NCBI GenBank assembly: GCA_951406725.2
Contig: OX597830.1
Location: 44,950,001 to 45,014,000, forward strand
Direction: 5' to 3'
DNA length: 64,000 nt
Origin: Octopus vulgaris
Taxonomy: Eukaryota
This document shows positions 1,117-49,900 of the stretch, piece after piece. How positions within the stretch are numbered: the first letter of the stretch is position 1; each line of letters begins with the position of its first letter. Under the pieces are notes generated by a model. That model did not search any database. It was not told where the DNA came from and was given only the letters and a program-made list of their open reading frames with translations. The position numbers and the translations under genes are program-made.

Positions 1117-1442
1117 TGTGCAAGTTTATGCTGTTCAGCTGGCTGGTTTTGAATGGGGTCTGAAGCAGTAATGCTGTCTGAAATGTTAGAGCAATGCTCC
1201 ATTATATGTCTCATTTAAGCCTTGTATTTGTTATGGAGGAAGAGGGCCAGTTTTTGTGATGTTTTATATTATCAGAAGAGATTATCAATGCTTTACAAGC
1301 AATGTATTTGCAACAATCTTGACAGATGTAGTTGCATGTTGGCCATAACCATGCAATATCCAATGAGCGTTTCACTTTTATATAGATAACCTCACACAAG
1401 TAAGCATACACTTATGTATAAAAGAAAGAAACAATAATAAAC

Positions 1443-1592
1443 CTCAGAGAACTTAGGATGTTCTTTAATGAAATTGGTAGCTTCTTCAGGTGTTAAATTA
1501 ATGACATGAATACCAGCAGGTAAGAGATCCATCTGTAGAAGAAGCAAACGAGCTTGTCGGACACAATATTCAGCATGGCGGAGGATATTATC
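1443..1592 (-). CDS. SPG11: SPG11 exon ([50 protein letters not shown])
   Basis: poly-T + ctag acceptor, gtttat donor, 150 nt; resembles DSCVRQAQHCQRLTKLITLQIHFL..LINL..LPRFYQ. Confidence 0.93.
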
Positions 1593-7500: not shown

Positions 7501-7749
7501 TTAAAGATGTCAAATGAAACACCCATGTTTCCAGAGGTGAATCTGTGATGCTCCCCAACTACTTTTGTTCATGATTACAGATGCACATATCATCACCCAC
7601 CAAGGGACGCACTTAACAGGTTAAGGTCAAAACAACTGACAAGTAGATCTGTGGTACTGAGCAGAACATTTGATAAAATGTACATGATAATACTTCCAAT
7701 CAGTTAAAATCAGAAGCCAATGAGAGCCAGTGCCTGGCATTGCATCAGG

Positions 7750-7790
<41 letters not shown>

Positions 7791-8606
7791 GATGATGATG
7801 ATGGTGACATTTACGTAAATTTCTATTGCATCACCAGATGTATCTTCTGTTCCTGAAATGTGTGACAAAGTAGAATTGCACAGGTATGCTACATCTGTTA
7901 TATTTTTGGTGTTATTTTATGGTTTCTATTGTGCAGAGAATGTGTAATATGAGTTGTGGTGATGGTGGTTGGGAGGTCATATATGCTGTATGACTGCAGT
8001 TAAGTGATTTAGTAATTAGATACGCCCCTCCATAATATTGACATTGTCTGTACAGATGCATAAGTGTACCATAAATCAACTGTCGAAATGTTCGTAGAGC
8101 AATGTGAAATGAAGAGTTTTGTTCAAGAACACAATGTGCTGCCTCGCCTGGGAATCAAACCCATGATCTAGAGGTCACATGTGCAATGCTCTAACCACAT
8201 GCCTTCACACACACACACACATATATAAATTTGCTGTGCAATATATGGATTCATAGAATCATGTGGCTGTCATGGAAAGCTCCTCAAGTGGACCTGGCTA
8301 GCAGAGCACATGGTAATCCAAAATGGAGGAGTACAGTGCAGAGTTCTAAGGAGCTGAAATCCAAGAGATCTAATCAATGAAATTATCTCATGAGGAGTAT
8401 ATAAACCATAAAAAGTCAGGAGGTATAAGAGGTGAATATATTTATTTAACCACTTGTTATCTTTAGGATTATGGCCTTTATATCATTCGTCTTGTTTACA
8501 TATCAAATGTTGTCAAACAGCCATAATCCAATAGCTAAGTGGTTAAATATATTCACCTCTCATACCTCTTCACTTTTTATGGTTTGTGTGTGTGTATGTA
8601 TGTATG

Positions 8607-8645
<39 letters not shown>

Positions 8646-11600: not shown

Positions 11601-14600
11601 GATGTGGTTGGCTGACCTATTGCGCTTTTTCCTGTTGATCTCTGATTTGTGCAATTTGTAATCCTGTTCAGCATTACGGCGTCCTTTCCTGGCAAGTCGG
11701 ACTGCTGCAGTCTCCCAAATTGCACTATTGGGTGGTTTTGATAACTGATTCCTAGAAGAAAAGGACTTGCTGAACAATACCCAGCATGGTTTTTGTTGGG
11801 GTGCAAAAAGAAAACATTTGTTCCACTTTCAATTCAACTTTAATGCTCAATTTGTGAAGAGCATTCAAGTGAATTTTATTAGAAATGATTTTAATTAAAG
11901 ACACCAATGATCAAAAGTAAAACTAATATTGAATGAAATTGTTGAGGAACAGGTTTTCCTCAACTAATTTTAAGAGAACAATTTTTCTTTCATATACAAT
12001 TAACTCTTTGTAAATAATTTCACATCATAAAAATGTATTTTCAGTGAAATTCCATCTATTTATATTTCATGATGCACTCTTCCCTTTTGCAGTTTTGTTA
12101 CATTTTGGGAGTGGATACATTCTAACCTCCATAGACCCTTTTCTTTTATACTTACCTTTGTATATTTCTTTTGAGCGGAAAAGTGTGGAAAAATAAATTG
12201 ACAAGATAACAAGATCAGAAATTTTGTTTTTGCATATTAAATCTAATATGCATCAAATTAAATTAAATTAAATTCTTACCATCAAATTAAATTCTTCAGC
12301 CTGTGAAAGGCGCTGGTTTAAAACACGAGCAGCTCTTAGAACATTAGAAATTCCTTCCATGTTACATGCTGATGTGTGGCAATGATGGGCCAGGATAAGC
12401 ATATTAGTTTGTACAGTTAAAACTGTAAAAAGTAATCGAGAACAAAAATTTAATTTTAACTTCCTTTATTAATGTATTTGTATGATCAAAATTACTTAAC
12501 AAACCAATTTATAACCAATATACATTTTAGTTTATAGATCCTATCTTTTAGAGCAGCTATATGTTATGGTAATTAGATACATAATAGTGAAAATACATAC
12601 CAGTGGTAAAGAAGATGGGATTTAGTACTAAATAAAAAATAAAAATTTATACACAAACATTGTGTTGTTTTCTTTAGAAGAACACAAACTGCTTATTTTC
12701 CAAATCAACTAAATTTAGGGAAAATAAAATGCAAGGGAATGATTGCCACTTCATACCTGGGTAGTTAATATTAGTAAGAATATCCAGTTATATATAGCTG
12801 ATACAATTGACAATGTTGTTCCCTGTACTAACAACATATGTTCTAAGTTCAAAACATTAGTACAAGCAATTCAACATAAATGAAATGGCTAACAGGTATA
12901 GCAAAGTGAAATTATGTTGCCACTGCTACTGAGGATGATAATTATAACAGAGGACTCAATGAAACTCAAGAGGACAACAATATTTTATGTAAACTTTTTT
13001 GTAGAGAAATACAACTCAGTTCTATTAAGCTGATATCTGACCAAGTAAAGATAAATATATATAAACTGGATCATCCAGTAAGACCATTGAGGTATGGTAA
13101 CATCATTGAAGGCTTTTGTGTTTATGTAGTGTGAGAGGGACATGTGAGGTTGACAAAACTCATCCCTCAATAACATATATAATCACAATTCAATTTACAT
13201 GCATAAAGCATACTATTTTAGGAGCGGTGGGGGAGGGGGACACATAAAATTATGATATTCCAACCTTTTTCAATGAGAAGAAAGTGAAATGGTTAGATTT
13301 GGGAACTGAAACAACTTTTAAACCTTCACTGGGAACTTACTGCTTTTCTGTGATGAATAAGTTAAAAATCATCATCATCGTTTAACGTCTGCTTTCCATG
13401 CTAGCATGGGTTGGCTGATTTGACTGAGGTCTGGCGAACCAGATGGCTGCACCAGACTCCAATCTGATCTGGCAGAGTTTCTACAGCTAGATACCCTTCA
13501 TAATGCCAACCACTCCAAGAGTGTAGTGGGAACTTTTACGTGCCACCAGCACAAGGGCCAGTCAGGCGGTACTGGCAATGGCCACGCTCAAATGGTGCTT
13601 TTTATGTGCCACCTGCACAGGAGCCAGTCCAGCGGCACTGGCAAAGACCACGCTCAAATGTTTTTTCCTGTGCCACCAGCACAAGTGCCAGTAAGGTGAT
13701 GCAGGTAACGATTACACTCGAATGGTGCTTTTTACAAGCCACTGGCACAAAGGCCAGCTTGTTGCTCCGGCAATGATCACGCTCAGATGGTGCTCTCAGC
13801 ACTCCACTAGCACAGATGCCAGTCATCAAATTTGATTTTGATTTCACTTGCCTCAACAGGTCTTCGCAAGCAGAGTTTAGTGTCCAATGAAGGAAAGGTA
13901 CACATAAGTGGGCCGGTTACATCCCTGGCATAGGCCATGAGGTTATGGTCTCACTTGGGCTTGCTGAGTCTTCTTAAGCACAGCATATTTCCAAAGGTCC
14001 CAGTCACTAGTTATTGCCTTGGTGAGGCCCAATGTTCGAAGGTCATGCTTCACCACCTCATCCCAGGTCTTCCTCGGTCTTCCTCTTCCACAGGTTCCCT
14101 CAACTGCTAGGGTGTGATACTTTTTCACACAGCTATCCACATCCATTCTCGCCACATGGCCATAGCAGCGCAGTCGTCTCTTTGCACACCACATCTGATG
14201 CTTCTTAAGTCCAACTTTTCTCTCAAGGCACTAACACTCTGTCAAGTATGCACACTGACATTACACATCCAGCGGATCATACTGGTTTCATTTCTTGCGA
14301 GCTTATGCATGTCCTCAGCAGTCACGGCCCATGTTTCACTGCCATGTAGCATAGCTGTTCATACATATGCGTCATACAGTCTACCTTTTACTCTGAGCAA
14401 GAGGCCTTTTGTCACCAGCAGAGGTAAGAGCTCTCTGAACTTTGCCCAAGCTATTCTTATTCTAGCAGCTACACTTTCAGCGCACCCTCCCCCACTTCTG
14501 ACTTGGTCACCTAGGTAACGGAAGCTATCAACTACTTCTAGTTTTCCTCCCTGGAATGTGGCGGAAGTTGTTCTCTGCGCATTTTCAGAGTTTATTGCTC

Positions 14601-26426: not shown

Positions 26427-28342
26427 TACCCCCTTGTTATCGAGTATGGCCATTGCACAAAGCTTAACTGTTATTGGTGCTGTGATCGAATGTGACATGT
26501 TAGCCCAGCTAAAGATCTACAATGTCTTGTACAGAATTGGCAGCTAAAGCCTTTACCGGCAGTAGCCGGCTGTAGTTGTAACTGGGCTTTATCTTTGCAT
26601 GTCATTTAAGTCCTCCTGCCGAATTACACTCTCTTCCACATGCCTGACAGATATGATTAGTATGGTGCATAATACCACCACCAGTGGCCAGGTTGTCACT
26701 CGTCTGTCTCACTTTATGACTACGAAGATGACTCTTGAGTCCAGCTTTACTGAGGCAGTGTCTTGCACAGACACTGCATGTCAGCATCATAAAAAGACCC
26801 TTCCCATCTGGAAGTGTAACAGCGATGCCCTTCCTGACATCCCTCCTTACTTTCTCATGCGCAACTCAAGATTTCTCAAAAGTAGCTGTCCCCTCGTGCA
26901 CAATCCTTCTCCACCTGCTACGATCAATAGCTATGCCCTCCCATGTGTCAGGAGAGATGCAAGCATCTCTTAAGGAAGCCTTCAGCAAGTCTTTATACCT
27001 CTTTTTTGGTTTATGTGGGGGTTGTTCTCCTTTAGCTAACTCTCCATAAAAGAGTTGTTTTGGCATCCTTGAATCCTTCATCCTGACCAGATGATCACTC
27101 CATTTGAGCCTTTGCTTTAACACAAGAGCTTCTATACTTTCACACCGAGAGCATTCCAATATTTCAAGATCACTGATGCAGTCCTTCCACTTAATGCCAT
27201 AGATCCGTCTAAGACACATCTGATGGAAATGTTCCAGTTGTTTAAGGTGGTATCGATATGTGACCCACGTCTCGCAGGCATAGAGAAGAGAAGGGAGCAC
27301 ACATGCCTTGTACACCTTTATCTTTGTCTTTCTACATATGTCTCGCCGACTCCAGAGGCACCTTTCTAGCCTTCTGAAAGCATTACTTCTTTCCTAATTC
27401 TGTATGGAATTTCATCATCCAAATTGCTATATCTATTAACAGTGTTTCCCATGTAGACAAACTGATCAACTACATCAAGTCGTTTACCATACACATAGAT
27501 ATTTGGTACACTATACTGCTTACCAGGGGCAGGTTGAAGCATGACAACAGTTTTCTTAAGACTGACTGTCAATCATAAGGCAGTGCAAGCATCAGAGAAT
27601 GCATTCAAAATGTGTTGCATATCAATCTCTGTGAGTGCTACTAGATCACAATCATCTGCATACAAAAGGTCTCTTATGATAGAGGTAAATACCTTTGTTT
27701 TTGCAGCAAAGCACCTGATATTAAATATGCTGCCAGAGGTTCGATAATGGATGTAAACACCATATCTGCAGTTTCTGAATGCAATACAGAAAATCATTGC
27801 AAAATATATGGCAAATAGAGTCGGTGCCAGAATATCCCTGTTTCACTCCATTTTGTATTGAAATGGGCTCCGACATATTCCCTCAAACATTAACCCTACC
27901 CTTCATGTCTTCATGAAAAGACCTAACCAAAGCAAGGAACTTTTCTGGACACCCAAGTTTCTGGAGAACTTTCCACAATGCTTTTCTATTAACGGTATCA
28001 AAGGCTATTGTCAAATTGACAAAAACCTGATACAAATCCAGACACTGTTCCACACACTTCTCCTGAATCTGTCTAGCTGAAAAGATCATATCAACAGTGC
28101 CACGTCCCACACGAAAGCCATATTGACTTTCTGGAAGAACACAATCTGCAATATGTTTCAGCAGACGATCCACGAGTACCCTGCATAAAACTTTTCCTAC
28201 GACAGAAAGCAATGATATTCCCCTTTAGTTACCACAATCATTCGTGTTGCCCTTTCCCTTATACAAGACCACCATCACAGTATCTCTCCAGTCCTCAGGT
28301 ACAGATTCACTAGCCCATATCTTACCAAACGAAGAGTATGTA

Positions 28343-29191: not shown

Positions 29192-32100
29192 TATATATTC
29201 TCTACTTGTTTTTTCTGTGTACCTTTCTGTAGAAGAGCGTAGGCTCGAAACGTAAAAGACTTTTTCTATTCCTGAGCGTTATACTAATACATCTGTTTGT
29301 TTTGTACACCACCCGTCTTCGTTTTTTGTTTTTTTCGTAAACTTTCCCTATATATATGCATGCATGCATACATACATACATACATATATACATACATAAA
29401 TACATACATACATTACATACATTTGTACAATCCAAATTTGAAAGAGCAAGAAAAAAAACAACGCGAAGGCATGGAATACGTACAGTGTCATTGGATGCTC
29501 AGGAAAGGAAAGAAAAGCAAAAGGATTTCACATTTTGAGCGGAGCTCTTCGTCAGAAATATAGAAAAACTCCAAAGAAGGGAAGACGGAGAAAGGAAATC
29601 GCCAACGATACACACGTGGTCACATACTGAAATGACCGGAAGGGAAAGGGTGCAGAAAAAGTTCTTTCAAAGACAGGAGAGTACAAGAGAAGGAGGTATG
29701 TGTGTGTAATGATAGCACGTGTGGGTGCGTGTGTGTATGTGTGTGTGGTTGTGGCTGTTTATGTATGTGTGTGGTTGGACTTAGTGTTATTTAAGGTTAT
29801 ATGAAGAATTTATAATAAGAATTAGGTATGATTCCTTTTGGTACCACCTGGTTAACTATAGCGTTGACTAGACCATAACCAACACCACTAGATATTTTAA
29901 ACATCTTAGCGGTTATTCCTGATGGGCCAGGGTCCTCCACCCCCTCTTCATATCCTTCATGGTACTGTCTACAAAGCTACTGTCTATTTGGATTGCTGGT
30001 CCCTCTGTTGGATCAATATTGGGAAGACTTCCCTTCTCCCATGTATTCTCTTCATTTACTAGCCTTTCGTAGTGGCACCTCCAAGCCCCTTTCTTTGCAG
30101 AGTCACTAACTGCAAGTGAACCATCATCCGTGCGAACACATTTCTCTTCCACATCACAATTTTCCCTGGTACACTGTCTTATAAACCAAAACACTTCAAG
30201 CTATGGGTCTCATGCTGATGAACATTGGCAAACTTCTTCCTTTCTGTTTCACCCCTGGCTAAGTATATTAGCATCCTAGCTTCCCTTCTAGCTGCCTGAT
30301 ATAGCTCTTTGTTACCACCACCATCACAGTCCTTCCAAGCTTGTTTCTTTGCTCTAATGGCCCTGTCAACTACATTAATCCACCTCAATGTCACCCTAGG
30401 TCTGGTTGGGACTTTGCATGACAAACAAATTTGGTCTGTGGTTATTAGTAAGTTGTCTTATAGGAACTTCCAGATATCCTCTATATTGCAAGTCTGTAAC
30501 TCCTACTCCTTCTCACCAAATGCTTCAGTTAGGAAGTCCCTAAACCTCTGACTATTCAAAGGATCTTTAAGCTTCCAAATCTTTCTTCTCCAAACTGGCT
30601 TGCTTCTTGGAATCCTTTGTACCTGCAATTTGAAGTCACTAATGAGTAACCTATGCCGAAGGGTACACTCTTCATCAGAGAAGGACTTTGCATTTATGAA
30701 CAACCATGAATCCCATTTTCTGGTGAGAACGTAGTCAATCTGGCCAGCATGATCACTGGATTTATACGTTATCAGGTGACTGGCTGGTTTACTGAAGTTG
30801 GTGTTGCCTCTCATTAGGTCATTCACATTACAGAACTCCAGTAGCCTGTGCTTCCTCCTCATTTCAAGAGCCAATTTCATGGCCACCATACACCCCATCA
30901 GAAGACATCTGGACGCTGCTCAACATGCCCATTGAAATCACCAGCCATGAAGATAAGGTTGCTTGTCTTCAATGTTGCCTGCAAAGGAGTGTCATAAAAA
31001 CAGTCCTTTTGTTCATTTGGCAGGCCTGTTTGTGGAGTATAGGCAGAAATGATTGTAGCTGTGCTATTCTGCAAAACTAGTCTGAGCTTAAGTACCCCAA
31101 CACATACTCTGACTACCTCAGTCACCTTACTTACTCATTTCTCTGCTAGAAGTATGCCAAAAACTCTTACTCCATTATGGTTGCCCTCCCATAAGAGCCT
31201 ACACCTATGCTTTTTGCCTGTAAAGAACTTGGCTGAAGCTCCCCTCCACTGAGCTTCTTGTATACAGCACACATCAACACATCTCCTTTCAAGCATCTCA
31301 ACAATCTCACCAGACCTACCTTTCAATGTGCCTGCATTGGCTGTACTGACTCTGAGAGTGTGTAAAGGGAGGTAGGAGGTAACATGGAGAGGGGGAATTA
31401 TGGCTTTCAGCATCTGAGAAGAAGGTTGTAATGGGCATTGGCTAGCAGACATGTCATAGCAGTTGTCCTTGCATTATTCCACCATCAGTTATGCTGTTCT
31501 TGCCAACTCCTCTGGATGTAGGTGTCAAACTAACATTAGTATAAGCAATGTTAGTACAGGTATAAGTGAAGACATATATAGGCTAACTAGTTAATCATTG
31601 TCACCTCCGTTGATGGTGGGCATCATATATCCCAATAGTATTAGTACAGAGCAATGTTAGTGGAAGTACAGGTAAGTTAGGTAAATAAAATAGGATAGGG
31701 GTAGTTAATTTGTTATATGTAAGCAATAAAACTAAGTGATGCATAGTCATGCTTGTATTGCTGCCATATGAATGGAACAGACGAGGTAGGGGTCAAGGAG
31801 TGTGTTTGAATTTCAGCAATATGGATGCAACTAATGGGGGAGTGGGGTTAAAGGGGTAGCTATGAGATGTTTACGATATAAAGTTACGAAAATAAAATAA
31901 TCTCTTCACAAATTATTCTGATATGATTATAATAACTCACCTCAACTTTTGGTACTTTGGCCATAATTCTGCAATACCACATCTTATGACTGAAATCATT
32001 TATATAATTAGCATACAGATTTCCTGAAGGGTCAGGTGCATCTATCAAACTTTGTACACAGAGCTCATACATAATGGCCTGTTCATTCATGTTTGTGTTA

Positions 32101-35100
32101 TTCTGGTTACATTTGTTAATCTCATCCTAAGAAAATATCAGAAAGAAAATATTTGCAATTGGACAAAGAAGATAAACATATAAGCTACATTAGTCATACA
32201 AACCAATTATTCTATGGTCAACCATATAAAACAATTAGAAGATAAATGGTGAAAATATTAAAATTGAGATTTTGCACATCAAGTTTTACCACTGTCCTCA
32301 TCATCATCATCATCCTCATTTAACGTCCGCTTTCCATGCTAGCATGGGTTGGACGGTTCAACTGGAGTCTGGGGAGCCCGAAGGCTGCACCAGGCCAGTC
32401 AGATCTGGCAGTGTTTCTACAGCTGGATGCCCTTCCTAACGCCAACCACTCCGAGAGTGTAGTGGGTGATTTTATGTGCCACCGACACAGGTGCCAGACG
32501 AGGCTGGCGAACGGCCACGCTCGGATGGTGTTTTTTTTTATGTGCCACCGACACAGGTGCCAGACGAGGCTGGCAGACGGCCACGCTCGGATGGTGTTTT
32601 TATGTGCCACCGACACAAGTGCCAGATGAGGCTGGCGAACAGCCACGATCGGATGGAGTTTGTTACGTGCCCACAGCACGGAGGCCAGTCGATGCGGTAC
32701 TGGCTACGGCCACGTTCGGATGGTTTTCTTGTGTGCCACCGGCACTGGTACCACAAAGATACAAATTCCATTGATGTTCATCTATTTTGATTTGGTTTGA
32801 TTTGATTTTCACTTGCCTCAACAGGTCTTTACAAGTGTCACATACTTGCCTCAACAGGTCTTCACAAGTGTCATAAGAAGGAAGGTATGCACAGGTAGAC
32901 TGACTACGTCCCAGGTAGGGACCACGGGTTATGGCCTGACTAGTCTTGCCGGGTCTTTGGATGGTGTTTTTATGTGCCACCAACACAGGTGCCAGATGAG
33001 GCTGGCGAACGGCTACAATCGGATGGTGTTTGTTACGTGCCCACAGCACGATGTGGTACTGGCTACCGCCACGTTCGGATGGTTTTCTTGTGTGCCACCG
33101 GCATTGGTACCACAAAGATACAAATTCCATTGATGTTCATCTATTTTGATTTGTTTTGATTGGATTTGATGGCAATGGTAAAACTGTGCTTAATATGAGG
33201 TGGTATCAAAAAGTTCCTGGACTAGTTCTGTAGTGCACCAGCAGATGGCAGCACACTGTTGCATGTGCAGTGAGAGATAGCATGAGGTAGTGTGCCGAGG
33301 GACATCACTGCGTTTACTTTGTAAGTTGCAAAGTTTGTGTTTTTGTGATCACATGTGTCTGCTGTGGTCTGCAATTTTGTCATGGACAGGAACAAAGAGT
33401 CAACATGAAAATTTGAGTTAAACTTGGGAAGTCATCTGCCACAGAGACATTGAGCATGCTTCAGCAAGCTTACAGTGATAAGGCAATGGGTTGTACATAA
33501 TGTTTCAAGCGGCACAGGTGCTTCAAAAGTGAAAGAACATCCCTGGAAGATGATGAGTGATCTGGAAGACCTGCCATGAGTGTCAATCTGGAAATGTGGT
33601 ATTGGGCATTGAGAATTTGTTCCCTAGGGCCATCAATTGAGAGGTCTATTGTGACGTTTTGAAGTGTTTGAGGGAGGACATTCAATGAAAATGACCAGGT
33701 CTGTGGAGCATGAAGAATTGGATTCTTCACAAAGACAGTACACCTTGTCACCAAGCTTTCCTCACCATTGAATTTCTTGCCAAAAACAACAAGGTAATGC
33801 TTCCACACCCACCCTATTTGTCAAATTTAGCACCTGCAGACTTCCATCTTTTCCCAAAATGAAAATGCAGCCAAATGGTTGTCACTTTAACACCGTTGTT
33901 GAGATCAAGAACAAATTGCAGTAGGCCATCAACTTGCTTACAGTAAATGACTTCCAGGTTGGATTCCAAAAGTGGCAGGAATGCTGGGACCAGTGTATTG
34001 CTGTGCAAGGTGAGTATTTGGACAGAGATGATGTTAAAACATTGGTAAATAAGTTATTTTTCATTAAATGTAACCAGTCCAGGAACTATTTGATGCAACA
34101 TACAAAGAAGAAATACAAATCGCAACATACAATTAACTGACAACAATTTTTATTTTTTAAGTTATCCAATTAATTCAGAGGAAGCTATACTTTTGTCATG
34201 CTAATTTTATAAAGTCAGTAAGTATTGATTTGACAACAAAAAGCTAACACAATTTTCTTTCACAATATTTTACTTATTTAATATAAAACTGATAACAATG
34301 TAAAGCAGTATAATATAACAGTATGGAAGCTAATAACAAAATGAAATTTAAAATGTAACATTCAGTCAAGAAGCAAAAACAAAACTTTTATTTTCTTCTC
34401 TTGTATGACCAGATAATGTTGCCTTAGTAGTTAGTCAAATGATACATGTCATCTGCTCAGCATATTTATCTTTCTTCTTTCCAATTCGTTTCCATCTCAC
34501 CTTCTCTTTGTGGTAGCAGTTTCTTTTTTTTCTCACAGTATCTTCTCTCTCTCACTGTCATAGAATATATTCTGTTATCATCCTCTCTCACTAGTAATTT
34601 TCTCACTCTCTTCTGCTAGATGACTTTCACATTCTCACTTTCTCTATTCTGTCAACATTCTTCTTTTTACCATTTCTGAACATAGGCATACATCCCACAT
34701 ATATCTAATTTTTCTAAATAATGATGCTTTTTGTCAAAAGGTTAAAAGTTGAGCTTTTATTCTGATTGAAGAAGTAAACATAAGACTAATAACCAAAAAT
34801 ACAATATTAAGTAACCAATGAAACAAGGTGTAAAGTTAGAGAATGAATTAATTCACATATAGTTAATAAAATTATATGCACATTTAGGACAGAATTAAGT
34901 AAGATAGGAAATTACCTGGAAAAACTGCACAATTCTCATAGGAGATACACTGTATCTATTAAATTTTGCAAGACAATCTTTCCAGAAATTTACACGGATA
35001 AATTCAGACAACCAGCAATGACTTTTCTGAAGCTTTGACTTTTCATTGTTAATCTAAGAATTGAAATAAAATTTATGAAGTTCATCATCATTGGTATGTT

Positions 35101-36730
35101 TGCTTTTCAATACTGCTATGAATATATACAAAAGGAAAAGAATCCAAAATTAGGTTTGATATATTTAGTTAAAATGACCTCTTTTTAAGTTACAAAGGCA
35201 TCAATGTCTTATATGTTCAAACTTACATTTAAATAATTATCATCATCATCATCGTTTAATGTCCGCTTTCCATGCTAGCATGGGTTAGATGAATGACTGA
35301 GAGCTGGCGAACCAGATGGCTGCACCAGGCTTCAATCTTGATCTGGCAGAATTTCTACAGCTAGATGCTCTTCCTAAAGCCAACCGCTCCGAGAGTGTAG
35401 TGGGTACTTTTACGTGCCACTAGTATGGGGCCAGTCAGGCGGTACTGGCAACGACCTCGCTCAAATCCTTTACACATGCTACTGGCACAGGTGCCAGTAA
35501 GGCGATGCTGGTAACGATCACGCTCGAATGGTATCTCTTACTTGCCACCGGCACAGTGGCCAGATAGCTGCTCTGTCAATGATTACACTCGTATGTTGCT
35601 CTTTACAACCCACTAGCACAGACGCTCTGGCAATGATCATGCTTGGATGGTGCTCTTTAAGGCGACGCTGGTAACGATCAGGCTCGAATGGTGCCTTTTA
35701 AGTGCCACTGGCACAGAAGCCAGTTAGCCGTTCTGTCAATGATCACACTCGTATGTTGCTCTTTACAATATATTCAGCAAGATGGTGTTTCCATGATAAA
35801 TACTTAAAATATGAAATGAGTGCACAGATTAAAATTTAAGTAAGCTAGAGTTAATTTTTGTCAATCTGTCAACCACACCTTAAATATTTTAGGAGAAATG
35901 TTATTAATTACCTCAGTAAATGTTATTTCTTCGTGATTAATATCTGCAAACTCACACAACATACGAGCATCATCATAGAGCTTCTTGTTAACAATTTCTG
36001 CCACTAGGGGCTCCACCTGGGTGGCTAAATGTTGTCGATCTTTCACCAGGAAAGAGGAGAATGGGATAGTGAGTTGGTTCTTCTGAAGGATTTCAGCCAC
36101 TTGCAAGAGTTGAGAGTAATTCAAACCTGTTAAAATAGAGACATACTATTAAAATAACTTCAAATAGAAATTTAACATCAGCAAATCTTTGAATTAGATA
36201 TGAATCTATGTTAGCTGTCGGATTAGTTATAAGCAGAAATTACAAATCTGCCAATGAAAGAGCCTCTATAAAATCAGTCAACCTGCTAAAATAAATAACT
36301 GGATTGCTTCACATTTTACACTTTCTTATAAATGGATGAATATGTAGCATAAAGAATTTTAGCAGAATGCTATGATATAAGAGAAAACAGAATGTTGATA
36401 GGTGAAATTTGGTCAAACAATGGAATAATGACACACAAACATGTGTTCTAACTTCAAATATATATATTTATCTTTTATGTTTTACTTGTTTCAGTCATTA
36501 GACTGTGGCCATGCTGGGGCACCACCTTAAAGAATATTAGTCAAACAAATTAACCCCAATACTTATTTCTTTTAAGCCACAAACTTCTTTCTATTTGCTA
36601 AATTATGGGGATATAAACACACCAACACCAGTTGTCAAGAACTGGTGGAGGACACAGACACACACCCACATTTATTTGTATTTATATACGAATGCGGTGT
36701 TGCACACTCATTTTTCACTGTTCGATATAA

Positions 36731-36774
<44 letters not shown>

Positions 36775-37531
36775 TGGGCTTCTTTCAGTTTCCATCTACA
36801 AAATCCACTCACAAGGCTTTGGTCAGTGTGCATGAGCTAACGGGAGAGTTCCAACCTGCTAAAGTATAATAGCAGCACGACCATGACCACTAACAACAAC
36901 AACAATACTAAAGGTGATCAAGACGAAGATTTATCTTATTTAGGGTTAAAAGTTCTATTGCCACCACCATCACCACTAGCAACAATAATTAAGGTGCTGA
37001 CAATGATGATGATGACAATTGAAATATAAAAATATAAAAATCTCTGACAAAGGATATTTACAACATTTCTAAAAATAACCCAACAATTGCTGCTTCGGCC
37101 AGGGTCAAGATACAGGACTCTTGACCTGTCCAACAAAGCGTGATGCCTAAACCAATCAGCTCAACCAATCAGCTTAAGTAATTGAGTGATACTACACACT
37201 GATTGGTCAGAATACAGTTTGCAAAACCTAGCACTCTGGAGCCTACCCAGCTGTATTTATAGCACAGAATCACTCATCTTGCTACAGTCAAAAATTGTGA
37301 AGCATGACTGTCAACACTACTACATGAACCCGAAGATTGCAGAATTCAATGCATGAAAGTACTAGTTCAATCAGAATGAATATTTAACATTCTACTATTT
37401 CATTTTATTTTATTCAATTATAATATATTATCTTATAATATATCATTATAAGATTGTAAATAAAACGTGAAAATCAGACAAGGTTGGAATTCTTTTTATT
37501 AATATATTCTTCTATACACAATCACACACAC

Positions 37532-37575
<44 letters not shown>

Positions 37576-39983
37576 TGGGCTTCTTTCAGTTTCCATCTAC
37601 AAAATCCACTCACAAGGCTTTGGTCAGTGTGCATGAGCTAACAGGAGAGTTCCAACCTGCTGGAAATAGCAGCTAAATCTCCCTCAGATTATATCCTTTT
37701 GTCTTAAAGAGAGGTTTTCTCACCTATGCCTTTCAACCAATACCTCCACCGCCTTGTCACATTACCTTAAAATAGTGCCCTGAAATGCAAACAGCACTAC
37801 ATGCATATCTTCTACTATACTTGAGACAAACCTTCACCATTACATCAATCCTACATCAGTTATGTAGAAACTTGGCTCCCAAAATGAGAGACTTAAAATA
37901 GCACTTATCAAATCCACTGTCTTCGTCTTTAGTGGCATCATCAGAGACCATCAAGTACAACCAAACATCATACTCAAATTCATCACACCACACACACACA
38001 CACACACTACTTCTACAAAAAGGATGACATAGAATGTACAGGCATACTAAGAACATTTACAGGTACCATATTGTGCAAAAAGTTAAAATATAACAGTGTG
38101 CAAACAATGTATTTCAGCCATCATAGGTTATGCCTGCTTTTGTTGGGGCCCCTATTCTCTCCATTAAAAGAATACTATAATAGAAGAAAAAAGACAGAAG
38201 ACTGTCTATTATCACAAGCTGTTCACAGATACCTGCACACTGTAACAAAAATACAAAACATGAAAGACTACATCCAGGACAAGTGAGGAGCAGTTTGCTA
38301 CTACAGCAGACTCCAGTCCTCACAATCTTCACTAAACACCCTGACACATGAACACCACCACAGAACATGATTACAATAGTACACTAAAAACACTATCTCA
38401 TCCACTCAGCACAGTTAAACAGAAAAATAATATACACAGAAACAGATGCAACATGAATAACTTCATCAGTACCAAACACTATCTTTGGATGCAAACCATC
38501 AATAATAAACGTAGAGGAACAACAGCTGTCATGTTCTAACCAAGTCCACCTTGCCTGTCTTGGCTGTGGATATCACCAGAATCTCCAAGCAGCCATCAGA
38601 AATGGACTATAAAGGAAACTGTCACACTGCACTTCAATTCATCACTGAATGTCAGAGTGTGCACTATATTCATCAGTTATACATAGGCTTGGAATATCAG
38701 AAACAATAGGTCTGTGGGTTAGACCTTGTCATTCAGCTGGCTACCAAGATATCACAGGAGTGTTTAATCAGGTAATTAACAACAACTAAAACAGGTATGA
38801 GAGTGTGTAAATTATTTACCTGGTTGATATGTGAATACTGAAATGATATTATACTGAGTTAAGTATTTCAAGAGTTTCACAACATCAGAGATATTTGGCA
38901 AACCTGTCAACAGCTCTCTAATAAGGCATTGACAAGTTTCCTCTTGCCATGAAATGTCCCCAACCATTGGAAATACCTGGGCCATGTGATTAATAGAGGA
39001 CATCTTATCTTTAGATGGCTACAAAAAAAAAAAAAAAATTTACATATAGTAATGATAATAATAATGATGGAATAATAATGAATAATAATAATAGTATTGT
39101 TAATAATGGATAATAATAAGTTTATATTATTTGCAATTATTTAATAAATATATATATAGTTTAATAAATATCAGTGGTTTGAAAAGAATGCTTCATTATT
39201 TGCAATCATAAATTTTTTCCACCTAATATGTACTGTGAACGGCGTGATGCACATATTATTTTACTGGTATTATTAATATTATTAATAATAATACTAATGA
39301 TAATAATAATGATAATAATAATAATAATAATAATAATAGTAATAATAATGATAATAATAATAATATTAATGGCATTTTGTAACTTAATATAATGAACTCT
39401 TGACATTGTATATATACATTTGCATATGGATATGTGTATGTTTGTATATTGTAATATTCTAATATATTGATTTGACTAACTGTAACCTTATATATATATA
39501 TATGTGTATATTATTATATATCATTATGTATATACGTATATATATAGGTGCATGTGTATATACACTTATGTGTATGTGTATATTATATGTTATATATATG
39601 TGCTCATTCTTGTATGGGTGTACCTTCTCTGATATTCATACTTAGATTGTACTTTATAATCTCTGAAGAGGCCTTGGGATATATTTGTAAGTGTCTCATT
39701 TATAACCACATATTACTTATCACACCTGGCTAATATGGGCATAATGAGATACTCATATCTACATGGCTGAAACAGCTGTAAGATATAGTTTATATTTATA
39801 TTTATATTTATTTATACATATTGTACTTATTGTATCATATTACTCATTGATGTGCACTGTTTTGTTCTGTACTATTATGTTTGACCTTGATGTTCATATG
39901 TAGTTGGTTAATAAATTATGTGAATGGGTATTATCTGATAGTTGATTATTGATTAAGGTGTATTTCTCCATTTTCTTATTTTG

Positions 39984-40015
<32 letters not shown>

Positions 40016-43000
40016 TATGGATGAATGAATTATCCTTTGTTTACCGTTAACATGGAAAATTCAATAAACAGTTACCAGGGTAGCTTATATACATATATAT
40101 ATATATGTGTGTGACATGATGAAATAGCAAAAGTTCTGCATTGGAAACTGTGAAAAGAGAAGGAAGCATGAAGTAAGACATGGTATGGACACAAACCATA
40201 GAGTGACTGAGTCAGTCTTGCAAAATCCTGTGGGATTTCCAAATTCATACTGATTAGGTGCTTGAGCACAAAATACACCAGACTTAGCAGTGGTGATCAA
40301 AGAAAACTGTGTGCATGTGTGCTCTAATTGATGTTCTATGGTCATTTGACTCATGAATACTTAAGAAGGAAAGCGAGAAACTAAATGCTTACAGTCCTCT
40401 TAAACATGAGAAAGCCTGACTGTGGAAGTCAAAGATACTAAAGATGAAGACAGTGCTGATTATTATTGGGGACTTGGCAATAGTATCAAAAGATATTGAA
40501 ATGAATATAAACAAAATAAAATCAGTGTCCAGTAGAGCTGTTGCAAAAACTTCACCTCCTCGGCACAGCCAATTATTAGGAAAGTACGAGATTGTTGAAG
40601 AATACAAATAACATAATACTATAGGCTACAAGTAGCAAGCCTGCTGCTCATGCAAGATTTCAGGTGATTCAACAAAACCTGAGTACAACAACAACAATAA
40701 CAACAACGTCATTGTCATCGTAGTCATCGTCATCATCATTTAATGTCTGTTGTCCATGCTGGTTGGACAGTTTGACTGGGCTGGCACGCAGGACCAGACA
40801 CCGATCTGATTTAGCATGGTTTTCTATGGCTGGATGCCCTTCCTAATGCCAACCACTCTGAGAGTGTAATGGGAGCTTTTACTGGCCTCCAGTATGGGTG
40901 CCAATTTGCATGATACCAAATAGTAATAATAATAATCCATTCTATGATAGGCACATATCTTGTAAGTAAGGCAGGGGTTAGTTGATTACACCAACCCCAG
41001 TGCTCAACAGGGGCCCATTACATTGACTCAAAAAAAAAAATTAAATGCAACACTGACCTTGGGACTGACCTGGTGAAATAAGGAAAAAAATTGACCCTGA
41101 CAGGATAACAACACCATAACAACAGTGATCATTTGGCACAAGGTTACAAATTTGGGTGGGGGTGGGGTGGGGGGCTAGTTGATTAAATCAGTCTCAGTAC
41201 TTCACTGGGATTGATGAAAGGCAAAGTTAACCGTAGCAAGATTTGAACACAGAACATGAAAAGTCATAACAAATGTGCATCCCCCTTACTATTCTCAGGA
41301 GCAATGCCTCTCCCATTTCGTCTGCTTGTGCTATGAGAAATGTTTCTTAATTGTGAGAGGTTTTACCCGAAGATTTAACAATTTTTTTTAAACCATCAAA
41401 TTTATGTTTAATGCTAAAAGGCATTTAGCTGTGATTAGTTCTGGAAGATAATGATAATTCTTTACATTGGCATAATGCAACATATTACAAGAGAATTGAA
41501 TTGGCTACAGAATATGTCTAGAATCCATTTTAACCCGTGCTAGCATGGAAAACGGATGCTAAACGATGATGATGATGATGATGAAGCAAGATAAAAGATG
41601 AAGTCAGTCTCAAATATTGTAAGATATTCCAATGAAAAATGTAATTGTTAAGCCGAATAAAAAAAAAAAAAAAACATAATTATACAAAAATTATTTTAAA
41701 AGTTTATACAAGGAAAGGTTATATATTTCAGTAACTATATAAACTGTAATTGTTATGGTTAGTGTTGCTTATGTAGTTTTGGTATTGGAAGTCATATTGG
41801 TGGTAGTGTTGTTGGTACTGAATATAAGACGGGCTGTGATAGCATTGATGGTGATAATAATGCTGAGAGGCAATATGAAAGAAAGGGAACAGGAAGAAAA
41901 GTAACTTACTTTATATAGAACAGAATGTTTAAAACTTTCCAGATAAGTCTGAGCTTCTGCATAATCATATTTCTCCAGACAACAGTGAAGGAATTTTAGG
42001 AAGAATGCCATAGGTGTGTCCTGTATGAAAAGAAAACAGGACAGATAATGTAGTTGATGAAGACCACAAATCTTACAATGCCATATAAAGGGAAACAAAA
42101 TATAAATTAAAAAATTATCAAGTAATAATATTAAAAAATTATAAATGCCATTTTTTATGTGGAACCCACCCCCAGTTACTTCACAGGCAACCCATCTAGG
42201 AGGATCATAACTCTGATACAGAGTAGAGGAGAATTGATGACTCTATAAAATGTACTCAGTCCACTGTTAAGTCGTTGGTGGTACACTAGAAAATACACTT
42301 ATAAATGAAAAAAAAAAAGGGATCAGATTTAAATAAAATATTTCCTTCCTTGTAAAAATATATAAAATTTCAGAAAAATTATCTAAAAGCAATGTAACAT
42401 ATAAACATGCCAACACATTTTACAAAGTGCCACTGATCAAATGATTCTGACCATGTTTCCAGCATGTTACTTGAATGCCACTGACTAACTCCAAGCATTT
42501 GTTTACATAATTTTGCTGGACTGAGAAAAAAAAAATAAATAAATAAATAAAAAAGAACCTCAGTCACATGACCATACCTATCATAAGTCAACAGTTGTAC
42601 AATCTAAGGCCCTAATTTAGTACATCACAATATTGTTTGAAAATCAAAGGCTAAGAAAAACTGTGTACTTACTGTTTGGAAAATAGCAAATCCAACTGTT
42701 AGATTAGCTAACCATTTGTTTCTGATGAATATTTCAGTAAGTTCACGTAAATCCTTCAAGTTCCACTTGGTAACAGGCAAAACATGTTGCTTCAGGAAGT
42801 GTTGATGCTGCACATCATTCATAACAGCAATCAACCAACCACACAAGCAACTGAGAATGTTAGCTTCCTACAGAGAGAAAAATCATAATAAACATCAAAA
42901 TTATGCTATGGTTAATGTAAATTGAAGAGTTATTCAATGTTAAAAGTGGGTTTGCTGATTCTATTTTATGAAGACTAAAATATGTCCACAGTTGACACTT

Positions 43001-43957: not shown

Positions 43958-46900
43958 GTGTATGTATATATATTTCTTGTAATAATTTTACAAAGAGACC
44001 AGAGTTTATAGTTTACTCAAAAATATTTTGTTTCTAAGTGCTCTACATTTCATAATTGACTCAACAATAAATTTACTTGGTCTAGTTTTCCAATTCCTTC
44101 TATAAGACTGAAAAGTAGGATATAAAAATTCAATAATTTAAAACAGAAACAGTAGATCTAATGCATTCTGTGTTGCCTAATTAGAAATCATTACTCAGAA
44201 ATTTTGACAGTCTTAATGTTAAAACTGCAGATTCAAACTTTAGCAACTTCATTATTTTTTCATTACTATAATGTGATTTAGTGTGAGCGAAATATTGTGG
44301 AAATATTTCTAAATGCAATAGTAAGTCCTCTGCAGAATGTCTGTTCTTATGATGAATGATACCAAATATCAATAAAGATACTCACTCTTTGACAAGCTGC
44401 TAGTTCTGTGAACAAGGGATTGCGTAACGCAATGCCATATGACAAAAGAGATTTCCAAACACTCCGACTTGCTTGGGCAGAAAAAATCACTCTGAAAACA
44501 TCTTCAGGAGCAGACATAGGGTTGAGATCAAATTCTGAAAATGGATTAAAACTATTAGTATTTTGTTTGAACAATAGCATTAATTATATGGTTATATGGT
44601 TAAGAAATTTGCTTGCCAACCACATGGTTTCACATTCAGTCCCACCATGTAGCAGTCACTACACCCCTCAACCAACCAATGCCTTCTGAGTAGATCTGAT
44701 AGGTCGACACTGAAAGTCCATCAATATAGGTGTGTGTGTGTATACATGTCCTTGCTTGACATCACAAGATAGTTCTAAACGAGCATTACCATTATACAAA
44801 TGTTGTCATTCATTAACCATACTCCATGAAAATGTTAGGTCAGGGGAAAATATTTCCTTGCTTGGAAATAAGTAAGGGATAGCAAGATAGGAAAAGTCAG
44901 ATAGCATCTGACTGTAGAAACTCAATTTTAATGAGTTCCATCTGACCTGAGTAAAATATACTTGCACATTTTTACAGATTAGGCACATGTAAAATGTCCA
45001 GTATGTTAGTCAAACTTAGTTTATTTGATATTTAACATTATTTTGGTCAAATCGTCATCAGAATCTAATACTATGTCTCAGATCCATATTAATAAAGAGT
45101 AATAAGATACTAAAGAAGAATTTTGCAATCAAAATAACAGATGTTCCTAAAACACAAATTTCAGTCTAAGTGTGACCTGGAGTGTGTTATTACTTTTTCC
45201 ATAGAGAAATTCAGCTGTTTGAGAAAAACAACGAGGAGGGAACCAGGCTGCTGGAGTTCGATGCGAATAGTCTTATGGTTCGCAACACTAACTTCAGGAA
45301 ACCTACAAGCCACCTAGTCAACTACCGATCTGGCCGACATACTAGCCAAATCGACTACATCCTTGCCAGAAAAAGGGAAAGATGGCTGCTTATAAATGCC
45401 AAAACCTTCCCAGGTGAAGAATGTACGCCACAACATAGACTGGTAGTTAGTGACTTTAGGATCAGGACTAAGAGGACGACTAGAAGACGACCAACATGGA
45501 GAAGAAGGGTCTGGAAGCTTAAAGATCCTGCGAATGAACAGAGATTTAGAGCCATATTACTTTAAGCCTTTGACGAAATAGAAGGGGGTATAGCTTCACA
45601 TGGGGTAGAAGACAACTGGAGGTCTCTAAGGGACAACCTGCTGAGAGCCACTGACCAAATCTGTGGTTGGTGCAAAGTCCCTGCAAGACCCAAAATAACG
45701 TGGTGGTGGAACAATATTGTTGACAGGGCTATTAGACAAAAGAAACAGGCTTGGAAGGACTGGAAGAACGGCGGTAGCAGGGAAGTGTATCAGACTATCA
45801 GAAGGGAAGTTAGGAGGCAGGTGTATTTAGCCAGAGGGGAAGCAGATAAGAAAAAATTTGCCAATGTTCTGCGCAGTGAGGATGAAAGACTTGAGGTTTT
45901 TCGTGTTGCAAGACAGTGTGTGAGAGAGAATCGCGATGTGGTAGGAGAGAAATGTGTTCGTATGGATGATGGTTCACTTGCGCTAAATGAGGATGCAAAG
46001 AGAGAGGTTTGGAGATGCCACTATGAAAGGTTGCTGAATAAAGAAAATGAATGGGATAAAGAGAGTCTGCCAAATGTTGACCCAACAGAGGGACTAGCTA
46101 TCCAAGTTGACAGTTCCTTGGTAGTTAAGGCAATTAGTAGCATGAAGACAGGGAAAGCCCAGGCCCATCAGGAATTACTGCAGAGATGCTCAAAATATCT
46201 GGTAGTGTCGACTATAGCCTAGTCACCCGTATAGTTAACCAGGTGATACACGAAGGAGTCATTCCCAATGACTGGTGTAGCAGCATAATAGTCAACTGCT
46301 ACAAAGGTAAAGGTGACACCCTAGATACAAATAACTACAGGGGTATCAAGCTGCTGGATCAGGTAATGAAGGTTACGGAGAGGGTCATAGCCCAACTAAT
46401 TAGAGAGAGAGTTAGCTTAGATGAGATGCAGTTTGGGTTCATGCCAGGGAAAAGTACTACTGATGCTATATTCCTGGTAAGACAGCTGCAGGAGAAATAC
46501 CTAGCCAAAGATAAGCCCCTGTATCTGGCTTTTGTTGACATGGAGAAAGCCTTCGACAGGGTCCCCCGATCCCTTATCTGGTGGTCAATGACGAAACTAG
46601 GGATAGATGAATGGTTAGTGGGAGCTGTGCGAGCCATGTACAGGGATGCTGTTAGTAAGGTGAGGGTTGGCAACGAGTACAGTGAAGAATTCCGAGTAGA
46701 GTTTGGGGTCCACCAAGGTTCAGTCCTCAGTCCCCTCCTATTTATCATAGTCCTCCAGGCAATAACGGAGGAATTCAAGACTGGATGCCCCTGGGAGCTC
46801 CTCTATGCTGATGACCTTGCTCTAATTGCTGAGTCACTATCAGAACTGGAGGAGAAGTTTCAGGTGTGGAAGCAAGGATTAGAATCGAAGGGCCTTAGAG

Positions 46901-49900
46901 TCAACCTAGCCAAAACCAAAGTCCTAATAAGTAGGAAGGTAAACAAATCACAAACGCCTTCAGGTAGATGGCCCTGCTCGATCTGTAGAAAAGGTGTAGG
47001 TAGAAACTCTATAAGATGCACCAAGTGTAAGCTATGGACACATAAGAGGTGCAGCAATGTCAAAGGAAGGCTAACGAGGAAAATAGTGTTTGTTTGTGGC
47101 AGATGCTCAGGAGCAATAAACACTGAAAATGTGCAGACACCAAATTCTACCACATTCCAGGGAGAAAAACTAGAAGTAGTTGATAGCTTCCGTTACCTAG
47201 GTGACCAAGTCAGTAGCGGGGGTGGGTGTGCTGAAAGTGTAACTGCTAGAGTAAGAATAGCCTGGGCAAAGTTCAGAGAGCCCTTACACCTGCCGGTGAC
47301 AAAAGGCCTTTCACTCAGAGTAAAAGGCAGACTGTATGATGCATGTGTACGAACAGCCATGCTACATGGTAGTGAAACATGGGCCGTGAGTGCTGAGGAT
47401 ATGCGTAAGCTCGCAAGAAATGAAGCCAGTATGCTCCGATGGATGTGTAATGTCAGGGTTCATACTCAACAGAGTGTAAGTACCTTGAGAGAAAAGTTGG
47501 ACCTAAGAAGCATCAGCTGTGGTGTGCAAGAGAGATGTTTGCACTGGTATGGTCATGTGACAAGAATGGTTGAAGATAGTTGTGTGAAAAAGTGCCACAC
47601 CCTAGTGGTTGAGAGAACCTGTGGAAGAGGTAGACCGAGGAAAACCTGGGATGAGGTGGTGAAGCATGACCTTCAAACGTTAGGTCTCACCAAGGAAATG
47701 ACTAGAGACCGAGACCTATGGAAGTATGCTGTGCGTGAGAAGACCCGGCAGAACAAGTGAGACCATAACCCATGGCCTCTACCTGAGATGTAGCCAGTCG
47801 ACTTATGCATACTTTTCCTTCTTGGGACACAAAACTCCACTTGTGAAAACCTGTTGAGGCAAGTGGAGATCAGAACCAAAATCGAAGTCGATCAACATCA
47901 ATGGAAATTGCAGCTGTGATACCAGTGCCGGTGGCACGTAAGCATACCATCCGATCGTGGCCGTTGCCAGCATCGCCCCATATGGCCTCCGTGCCAGTGG
48001 CACGTAAAAAGCACCATCCGATCGTGGCCATCGCCAGCCTCGCCTGGCCCCCGTGCTGGTGACATGTAACAAGCACCATCCGACCGTGGCCGTTTGCCAG
48101 CCCCGTCTGGCACTTGTGCCGGTGGCACGTAAAAAGCACCCACTACACTCATGGAGTGGTTGGCGTTAGGAAGGGCATCCAGCCATAGAAACATTGCCAG
48201 ATCAGACAAGGCCTGGTGCAGCCTTCTGGCTTCCCAGACCCCAGTTGAACCAGCCAACCCATGCTAGCATGGAAAGCGGACGCTAAATGATGATGATGTT
48301 ATGTTGGGATGCGGCCGTGCGACATACAAGAGGAGAAATATGTCACCAAACTCCTTACGTACGGTCGAATTCTAACACCTCCAACAAATCAAGAATAAAT
48401 TAACACCAAATGACTATCCTAGATAAAGATATCTCAAAAATATATAAAATATAAATGATCAAAAACATTCTTACCCTGATTAGTCTCTTTACTTTCTTCT
48501 TTATTTGAATTGATTATTAAAGCATCATCTTCATCAGAACTACTTTGCCCTAAAATGTAAAGAAATTATATTACTATAATCGTGGAATAAATAAGCTCAA
48601 AATAAAGACAAACATTCCAAATATTTAATTAAAATATTATTCACGTGTGAAATGAGCACCGTTACAATACTCAATAGCTAAAATGGAAGAGAAAAACAAT
48701 AAAAAAACGTTATGGGGAATAAACCTTTACAAAAAGACACTAGGGACAATTTAAAAAGTTAATAAATATCTGTTTAAATATTGATTTATCTGGATTTAAA
48801 ATGTATTAGTCTATAGATAAACCCTCAAGATGGTAGAAATGGTCTTAATATATTGGTGGTACTTTTTGCAGATAAATCTTCTGATGTTTGAAGAACAATA
48901 CTAATGCCAATAGGATTTAAGCTTAAAACCTTGCAAAATGAGACAAATCTGGCACATCATTTAGTGTACTATTATAGTCATCTTCATTACACAGGGTATT
49001 AAAATATTGGTATCATTTTAAATATTGATATAATTTCTCTTCAGTTTTATTACAAAGAATGCTTACACCAAATAAATCTTTATAAAGAAAATAACTCATA
49101 AAATGTGATCAGATAAAAACAGTAAAATCAAATGTATTTAGTGATATTAATTGTAAATCATGCATTAGAGAAGAGTTGAAATAATAGGTTAAAGTTGGTT
49201 TAGTCCTGCAGAAAATATGTTGTGCTTAGTTAAGGAACATAACTTTAGAAAAACAAGTTCAAATATATGTGAATTTCCACTCAACAAATTAATTAGCCAT
49301 CAAACTTTTCTATTTTTTAGGCTATAAGAATTATGATACATACGCTTTTCTTTAGGGAATTAACAGCATAAATGAAGTGAAATAGCAACAGAGTGCCCAA
49401 ATGACTTCAATTAAAATCCTGTTGCAATCTTAGCTTACCAGAAGATTACTTCTTACTCTACAGTCAAACTATGAATGCCAAGATTTCATACAGGTGTTTA
49501 AAATTTACAGATTTACCCAACTTGGCATATAGAGATTACATTTATAAAGTTAATAAACAGAGGCATTGACTAACCTGTGTCAGAAGCTACTCCTATCTTG
49601 CTATAAAAACCATAACGAAATGCTTTTGTAGCAGGTTTTTTCATTTCCGAGTCAGTTTTGGTAGTTGTCTCTTCAGTCTCAGTGAAAAGATTGTTTTGAG
49701 CATTATTTACAATGTAGAATATGTGATCTCGAAGATGAGGACTAGGAAACCATGGAACTAACTGTAAAAGCTGAAAGGAATGAGATGATAATATTTAGCT
49801 CAGTTAGGGTAGTGAATTGGCAGAATGTTATCACACTGGACAAAATGCTTAGCATTGTTCCTTCCATCTTTACGTTCCAAGTTCAAATGCTGCCAGGGCC

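Follow-up and report, generated by a model that had tools for sequence, protein, structure and literature searches.

A 656-bp insert on the plus strand of an Octopus vulgaris SPG11 intron (36877-37532) is an ordinary, truncated copy of an element type already known, one of its junctions being rare. Positions refer to the window, the whole 64,000-nucleotide stretch of DNA analyzed here (assembly GCA_951406725.2, contig OX597830.1, positions 44,950,001 to 45,014,000). The insert represents the truncated 3' end of a young, (TA)n-targeting Penelope-like retrotransposon (PLE), and the 141-145-bp repeat flanking it is probably a rare, oversized target-site duplication that arose from the insertion. 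More important than the duplication are the family-level data, specifically the footprint of a start site and a variant ribozyme core in a young subfamily.

Insert identity and genomic context

36877..37532, plus strand: 5'-truncated 3' end (3' UTR/pseudo-LTR); the element is young, EN+ and Penelope-like, and the copy spans reference 3601-4270 of its 4.27-kb unit
36920..36921, plus strand: site of a 10-bp deletion private to the window copy, 1 match in the genome
37508..37532, plus strand: optional 25-nt PLE tail
35912..36126, minus strand: candidate SPG11 exon closest to the insert and, in gene direction, downstream of it; an open frame bounded by AG/GT, assigned to the gene through the Spatacsin_C exons
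36460..36690: high-copy SINE-like repeat of the host, next to the targeted (TA) tract; each position has 45-90 hits in the 1 Mb of loci fetched

Searching the genome with 36861-37530 returned 1,213 candidates, and the 39 other scored hits align from 36877 at 98%. Compared with copy L033, the window copy shows zero substitutions and two deletions (10 and 4 bp), and the lack of substitutions over 656 bp agrees with the recent insertion proposed in the earlier note. Upstream of the insert's counterpart, sister copies extend for up to 4.2 kb (37 fetched 10-kb loci); these 37 loci are the best matches to the insert query and their identity thus overstates the homogeneity of the family. Position-ordered copies on contig C1 mostly show 98-100% identity. 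Full-length copies encode a 430-aa ORF1 followed by an overlapping frame (about 775-777 aa) with a reverse transcriptase (RT) plus a GIY-YIG domain at the C-terminal end. In the 777-aa frame of L033, Pfam detects GIY-YIG (E 3e-5) and RVT_1, the latter at E 3e-6, which falls short of the curated cut-off of Pfam, and 985 homologues were found at E<=1e-50, many of them with the same domains. Between RT and endonuclease, the translation contains a CX4CxxC motif (CNDSRCGTC) fitting the CX2-5CxxC of Neptune/Nematis. Near-identity to the 3' end of these full-length elements bears out the suggested Penelope-like pseudo-LTR (pLTR) origin, while the self-contained promoter and ribozyme cassette once envisaged is instead a 5'-truncated copy of a protein-coding 4.27-kb PLE. 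Non-LTR retrozymes are non-coding, tandemly repeated monomers without a parent ORF. The retrozyme alternative can be dropped because the segment is the 3' end of a coding unit whose sister copies run upstream into the RT/GIY-YIG ORF.

The family contains partial tandems of the pLTR (L032, L033, L039, L057 and L104) and inverted 5'-truncated copies (30 inverted units among 76). The 3' ends of family copies lie at reference 4245 or 4270 and define the optional tail. At least 1,098 copies of the young element carry the hammerhead as an exact 47-nt match. Beyond the 1,700 exact-pattern copies, the wider family may have more members; in contigs of four public runs, element depth (36877-37525) is thousands of times that of the junction bin, although summed contig depth does not equal copy number.

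Several further features of the family were observed. In full-length copies, among them L036 (L036:4880-5030), about 90 nt are shared between ORF1 and the RT frame, with the overlap in the -1 frame and containing an invariant T-rich run. Within the overlap, 75 nt are identical in 27 of 28 copies, the remaining copy being cut off. The overlap is a candidate for programmed frameshifting, which the available text of one study (PMC8557442) describes in some PLEs. At the tandem junctions of L032 and L033 (~3660-3730), a 10-bp inverted repeat around an (AT)n spacer was read by eye, its arms being formed by the tail and the beginning of the following unit. This repeat may correspond to the AC-rich stem-loop at which reverse transcription of the Anolis element begins. 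Promoterless mini-copies of 220-250 bp, running from the start site to the tail, are numerous and include L108, L112, L118, L124, L154, L162, L171, L175 and others, and many inverted units of about 450 bp resemble two such mini-copies placed back to back.

SPG11 lies on the minus strand, based on Spatacsin_C in 3 of 13 candidate exon peptides tested (exons at 1395-12465). For the exons nearest the insert, no Pfam match and one weak PDB spatacsin match (E 0.54) were obtained, and four single exons searched against PDB gave results too weak to identify the gene. The nearest candidate exon, 35912-36126, places the insert in an intron and pointing antisense to the gene, and the plus-strand insert set against minus-strand Spatacsin_C exons upholds the antisense orientation reported earlier. 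Scanning 36127-41909 for exons yielded none under the filters applied, though exon phases suggest that one is missing. The high-copy repeat at 36460..36690 is presumably a SINE. Just before the left (TA) tract it is interrupted by a 46-nt stretch (36686-36732) with no significant match in the 1 Mb of fetched loci. Elsewhere in SPG11 introns, RT/endonuclease-like frames of other LINE-type elements, labeled by eye, are located at 45176-47760 (plus strand), 26566-28224 (minus) and 29913-31473 (minus), with the frame at 46141-47760 staying open for 539 aa. Dispersed short arrays of a related 62-66-bp unit are found at 13534-13692, 32465-32745 and 47925-48140.

The flanking duplication and its origin

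36732..36876, plus strand: left copy of the target, made up of the (TA) tract, some 50 bp of a SINE-like repeat with high copy number, and DNA unique to the locus
37533..37673, plus strand: right copy of the target, presumably the original site
36733..36769: left (TA) tract, 37 nt
37534..37570: right (TA) tract, 37 nt; the family's 3' junction and probable priming site
36861..36876, plus strand: 16-nt altered end or filler at the 5' junction, last 9 nt matching the target

The direct repeat pairs 36732-36860 with 37533-37661 over 129 nt with one mismatch (36842/37643), and BLAST stretches it to 36876/37673 (145 columns, 95%). The 92-bp duplication of the earlier note is real and does carry one mismatch; its pairing was off by one (at an offset of 801, 36769-36860 pairs with 37570-37661), and the duplication, rightly called long, is longer than stated, covering 36732-36876 (145 bp) and 37533-37673 (141 bp). 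The left copy runs up to the first base of the element (36877) and the right copy follows on from its last, which is the geometry of a target duplication. The last 16 nt of the left copy are an altered form of the last 12 of the right copy. This filler closes a small hairpin (z -2.86; 2/200 shuffles) and comes after a 5-nt microhomology (CTGCT) between the target and the upstream sequence that the element has lost. While about 50 bp of the duplication consist of high-copy repeat, its unique part, 36820-36876, is confined to these two sites genome-wide. The element itself lacks the duplicated DNA, which confirms the assignment to host target DNA and removes the possibility that the 92-mer belongs to the element.

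Long duplications are not the family's mode of insertion, as none was found among 164 distinct sister insertions (95% upper bound about 2%), and the proposal that the duplication lies far above the family norm is thereby supported. Scoring looked in the flanks for direct repeats whose end lay no more than 40 nt from the 5' junction, with a detector that recovers the window copy. In a first set, 76 of 97 paralogous loci were scored, 17 lacking a full 3' end or any hit and 4 having short flanks. A second set comprised 15 of those 17, now rescued, together with 26 of 42 CUGAAGA-core loci, and a third set contributed 49 of 56 further loci, two of them repeating earlier ones. The family target is (TA)n, with most copies located between two (TA) tracts and TA present at the 5' side in 70/76 (loose pattern). 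Tract lengths are equal in only 2 of 46 simple paralogues as compared with 37 and 37 nt at the window copy, where the tract was thus probably copied whole. Short templated fillers are common at 5' junctions of the family (L032, L101, L104, L107, L142 and L153).

For eleven copies whose 5' junction is not TA, a search reaching about 10 kb downstream turned up diverged repeat matches but no distant duplication. A 21-nt, 81% low-complexity match 1.2 kb away from L224 was dismissed as chance. Two copies, L163 and L099, have 5' junctions about 43 and 28 nt beyond the TA tract and carry no second flank copy downstream; these junctions are possibly the deletion counterpart of the window event.

We favor formation of the duplication during insertion. 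The GIY-YIG endonuclease would have introduced a bottom-strand nick close to the left end of the (TA) tract, with reverse transcription being primed at the nick and stopping after about 670 nt. The other strand would have been opened about 105 bp past the (TA) tract and not inside it, and the cDNA end would have been joined via the CTGCT microhomology with error-prone fill-in, resulting in the 16-nt filler. The same error-prone joining possibly left the private 10-bp deletion, located 43 nt inside the element. Two observations weigh on this mechanism. The family holds no second case of it (0/164), giving the duplication the standing of a one-off, and the duplicated copies differ (one substitution and the altered 3' end) while the 656-bp element has no substitution. 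Based on these differences, copying from another allele fits at least as well.

Repair after insertion is the main rival, although we regard it as rather unlikely. It would start with an ordinary insertion into (TA), the duplication being added later by aborted repair. A break in the 5' part of a longer copy would let the left (TA) end invade another (TA) tract, on the sister chromatid or an empty homologue, after which about 105 bp of right flank would be copied, synthesis aborted and the element rejoined by microhomology. Such repair yields exactly the observed order of parts and accounts for the mismatch (through an allelic template), the filler, the nearby private deletion and the lack of any such duplication at the other 164 insertions. 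However, two events are needed in a copy without a substitution over 656 bp, and junction fillers arise at insertion in this family anyway. It is very improbable that a chimeric join of empty and filled haplotypes during assembly made the duplication. The site is repeat-rich and the TA lengths are equal, as such an artefact would suggest, but the filler and 10-bp deletion of the left junction are found nowhere else in the assembly and the two duplicated copies differ by a substitution, neither of which a simple misjoin would create. In four short-read contig sets, depth in the bin 36850-36875 is at a single-copy level of 7-17 (4/4 runs), which fits empty or filled alleles alike, with repeat copies swamping the mapping. 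Formation during insertion would make the long duplication a single repair accident and show that, as with L1, a PLE insertion can on occasion duplicate over 100 bp.

Probable start site and hammerhead-like motif

37152..37206, plus strand: two CCAAT boxes and one reverse CCAAT, common to sister copies, with the number of forward boxes varying
37254..37261, plus strand: TATA-like box TATTTATA; older subfamilies carry TATTTAAG/A at the same 30-31 nt spacing
37284, plus strand: probable transcription start (A of ACAGTC), at the family 5'-end pile-up
37325..37369, plus strand: type I minimal hammerhead-like motif, predicted cut 37364/37365

The promoter motifs are located as previously placed, with CCAAT at 37152 and 37165, ATTGG at 37202 and TATTTATA at 37254. 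At least three CCAAT on either strand occur in 496 of 2000 dinucleotide shuffles of the insert, so the count alone means little. The 30-31 nt spacing of the TATA-like box in older subfamilies is based on 33 matches in 78 loci, many of which are truncated. A start had been predicted at 37280-37290, and the 5' ends of the family indeed pile up at 37284. Here, a TA tract is joined exactly to ACAGTC in 80 copies, 30 nt after the start of TATTTATA; of the start-site junctions, 24 are of the TATAT type in the young subfamily alone. Among young non-inverted C1 copies, 7 of 42 begin in reference 4021-4032 (12 nt) as compared with 0.12 expected, a range that was chosen after the data had been seen, yet lies where the TATA box predicts. 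In a mostly older set, 15/32 begin within reference 4012-4034. As a control, a 30-nt window upstream, probed with a young-biased anchor, held 7 loci. It should be noted that the anchors of the first cut-site and upstream controls detect mainly the young subfamily (1/30 and 0/30 older loci detected) while the start-site anchor detects both subfamilies, and our conclusions thus rest on the C1, TATAT, shared-anchor and mostly-older-set counts. Forward match counts were inflated by overlapping matches and distinct loci were counted instead.

The simplest reading of the pile-up is reverse transcription reaching the 5' end of the RNA, and judging from these genomic junctions, the element RNA likely starts at 37284. 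We considered whether the start junction holds an untemplated G derived from the cap and rejected this, as the base before ACAGTC is G in 9/80 and C in 18/80 junctions, both fitting microsatellite microhomology. The 5' pLTRs of three out of four partial tandems begin at reference 3633-3711, whereas the window copy begins at 3601 and therefore holds at least as much promoter. With its pLTR promoter kept upstream of the probable start, the window copy carries a putative promoter that would be able to fire antisense into the SPG11 intron.

A hammerhead-like motif is present where the earlier note described it. It consists of a 5-bp stem I, a U4C core, U.U at 10.1/11.1, a 4-bp stem II and a palindromic helix III, and dinucleotide shuffling of the insert yields a motif of the hammerhead type in 1 case out of 2000. 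Within the window, no Rfam family scored at or above its gathering threshold. Monomeric hammerhead folding was no more stable than that of shuffles (z -0.14 and -0.07), and folding energy thus lends the hammerhead no support; the palindromic helix III would form a 6-bp intermolecular duplex of -6.8 kcal/mol. In the same 47-mer, a CCGAAGA core is found in 1,098 copies and CTGAAGA in 12. A looser pattern recovers 577 copies with the canonical core (CUGAAGA), which are older and more diverged, indicating that U4C is derived. Tested against the PLE-hammerhead core (C3-U4-G5-A6-N7-G8-A9 plus GAAA), the window copy fails at position 4 while older subfamilies pass. A family consensus of CUGAAGA, raised as a possibility beforehand, therefore holds for the older subfamilies and not for the young one, which has CCGAAGA. 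The G10.1-C11.1 pair closing stem II is present in none of 77 older copies, and the window copy has U.U. Stem II is intact over 4 bp in 67 of these 77, with variation lying in loop II, and no compensatory stem changes were seen among the 77, copies too similar to each other to be informative on this point. According to the available part of one report, U4C considerably lowers activity in vitro and is tolerated by a viroid (PMC3088659), suggesting that the motif is probably weak in the young subfamily, not necessarily dead.

Six loci begin within 8 nt of the predicted cut and 2-3 exactly at it when an anchor common to both subfamilies is used; with a young-biased anchor, 8 loci begin in a 30-nt window at the cut site. 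Copies starting at 37284 run through the motif uncut in both subfamilies. The idea that self-cleavage sets the 5' end is not supported, given the lack of a pile-up at 37365, the U4C core and the missing 10.1-11.1 pair. The hammerhead-like motif is inherited as part of the pLTR, the 5' ends of integrated copies are not marked by it, and the element RNA is likely copied without being cut there. The 5'-end record covers integrated copies, and RNAs that were cleaved and then not integrated may have left no such record.

These results also bear on the view of the insert as a self-contained promoter and ribozyme unit, or retrozyme, with self-cleavage fixing the RNA 5' end and long duplications arising from the way it inserts. 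Its promoter and hammerhead-like motifs are real and its start site lies as predicted. However, sister copies continue upstream into the RT/GIY-YIG ORF, long duplications are missing from all 164 sister insertions and 5' ends do not accumulate at the cut site, while the core is U4C and the 10.1-11.1 pair is lacking. This view is largely refuted and we give it hardly any credence.

Returning to the truncated PLE copy, a broader reading can be put forward tentatively. The youngest and most homogeneous expansion would have spread with a crippled U4C hammerhead, and the integrated copies of both subfamilies would record uncut RNA from the Pol II start, amounting to genome-scale in vivo evidence that cleavage is dispensable. 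Solo pLTRs would then be live promoters that seed the 220-250-bp mini-copies in a SINE-like manner and fire antisense into introns. With regard to the role of PLE hammerheads, RNA processing was proposed by Cervera and de la Pena (PMC4209133), whereas cleavage was dispensable in vitro according to Frangieh et al. (PMC11167929), as stated in the portions of both papers available. The octopus offers matched subfamilies, an older one with a canonical core and the youngest with U4C, together with a precise start-site footprint, which makes this question directly testable. If the U4C expansion did proceed with uncut RNA, PLE ribozyme cleavage would be dispensable for retrotransposition in vivo.

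Comparison with known systems

A literature search, outside of which lay most subscription papers and Repbase, returned no paper with a PLE duplication of such length or such a start-site footprint. The comparisons below draw on portions of the cited papers. The octopus element appears to be of the Neptune/Nematis type, a placement by shared features rather than an RT tree. As in the EN+ Neptune/Nematis PLEs (Craig et al. 2021, PMC8557442), RT is combined with a C-terminal GIY-YIG domain, a CX4CxxC linker and a frameshift-separated ORF1. Also shared are 5' truncation, pLTR partial tandems, inverted 5' copies, an optional tail, (TA)n targets and the location of hammerhead and start site in the pLTR. 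Unlike the elements described there, the window copy has a 141-145-bp flank duplication, and the octopus tail measures 25 nt instead of 30-40.

With PAc, a Poseidon element of Anolis (Frangieh et al. 2024, PMC11167929), the octopus family shares AT-rich targets and two 3' ends that define the tail. In the portion available, hammerhead cleavage of PAc was not needed for insertion in vitro, unprocessed RNA was the dominant substrate and no reads were found at the cut site. In contrast to PAc, the octopus evidence is genomic, with a pile-up at the start and not at the cut, and the youngest octopus subfamily is U4C. The motif resembles the minimal hammerheads of PLEs (Cervera and de la Pena 2014, PMC4209133) in being type I with a short stem I and a dimer-suited palindromic helix III, in its location in the pLTR and in the low activity expected of it. 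It differs from those described in the U4C of the young subfamily, in a stem II of 4-5 bp and in the missing G10.1-C11.1 pair (77/77 older copies and the window copy).

Solo pLTRs and microhomology-mediated 5' junctions are shared with Penelope insertions of Adineta vaga (Arkhipova et al. 2013, PMC3846280). In the text available, target duplications of the latter are short or absent, measuring 8-10 bp where reported, and the window duplication is about 15 times longer. For L1, target duplications above 100 bp are a known minority outcome, accounting for at most 10% in HeLa cells according to the accessible part of the source (PMC5223499). The octopus duplication differs in that it involves a different element class and was found in a genome assembly, while the L1 events come from cell culture. 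It resembles these large L1 duplications in the target-primed insertion, the distant second nick and the length above 100 bp that our preferred mechanism would entail.
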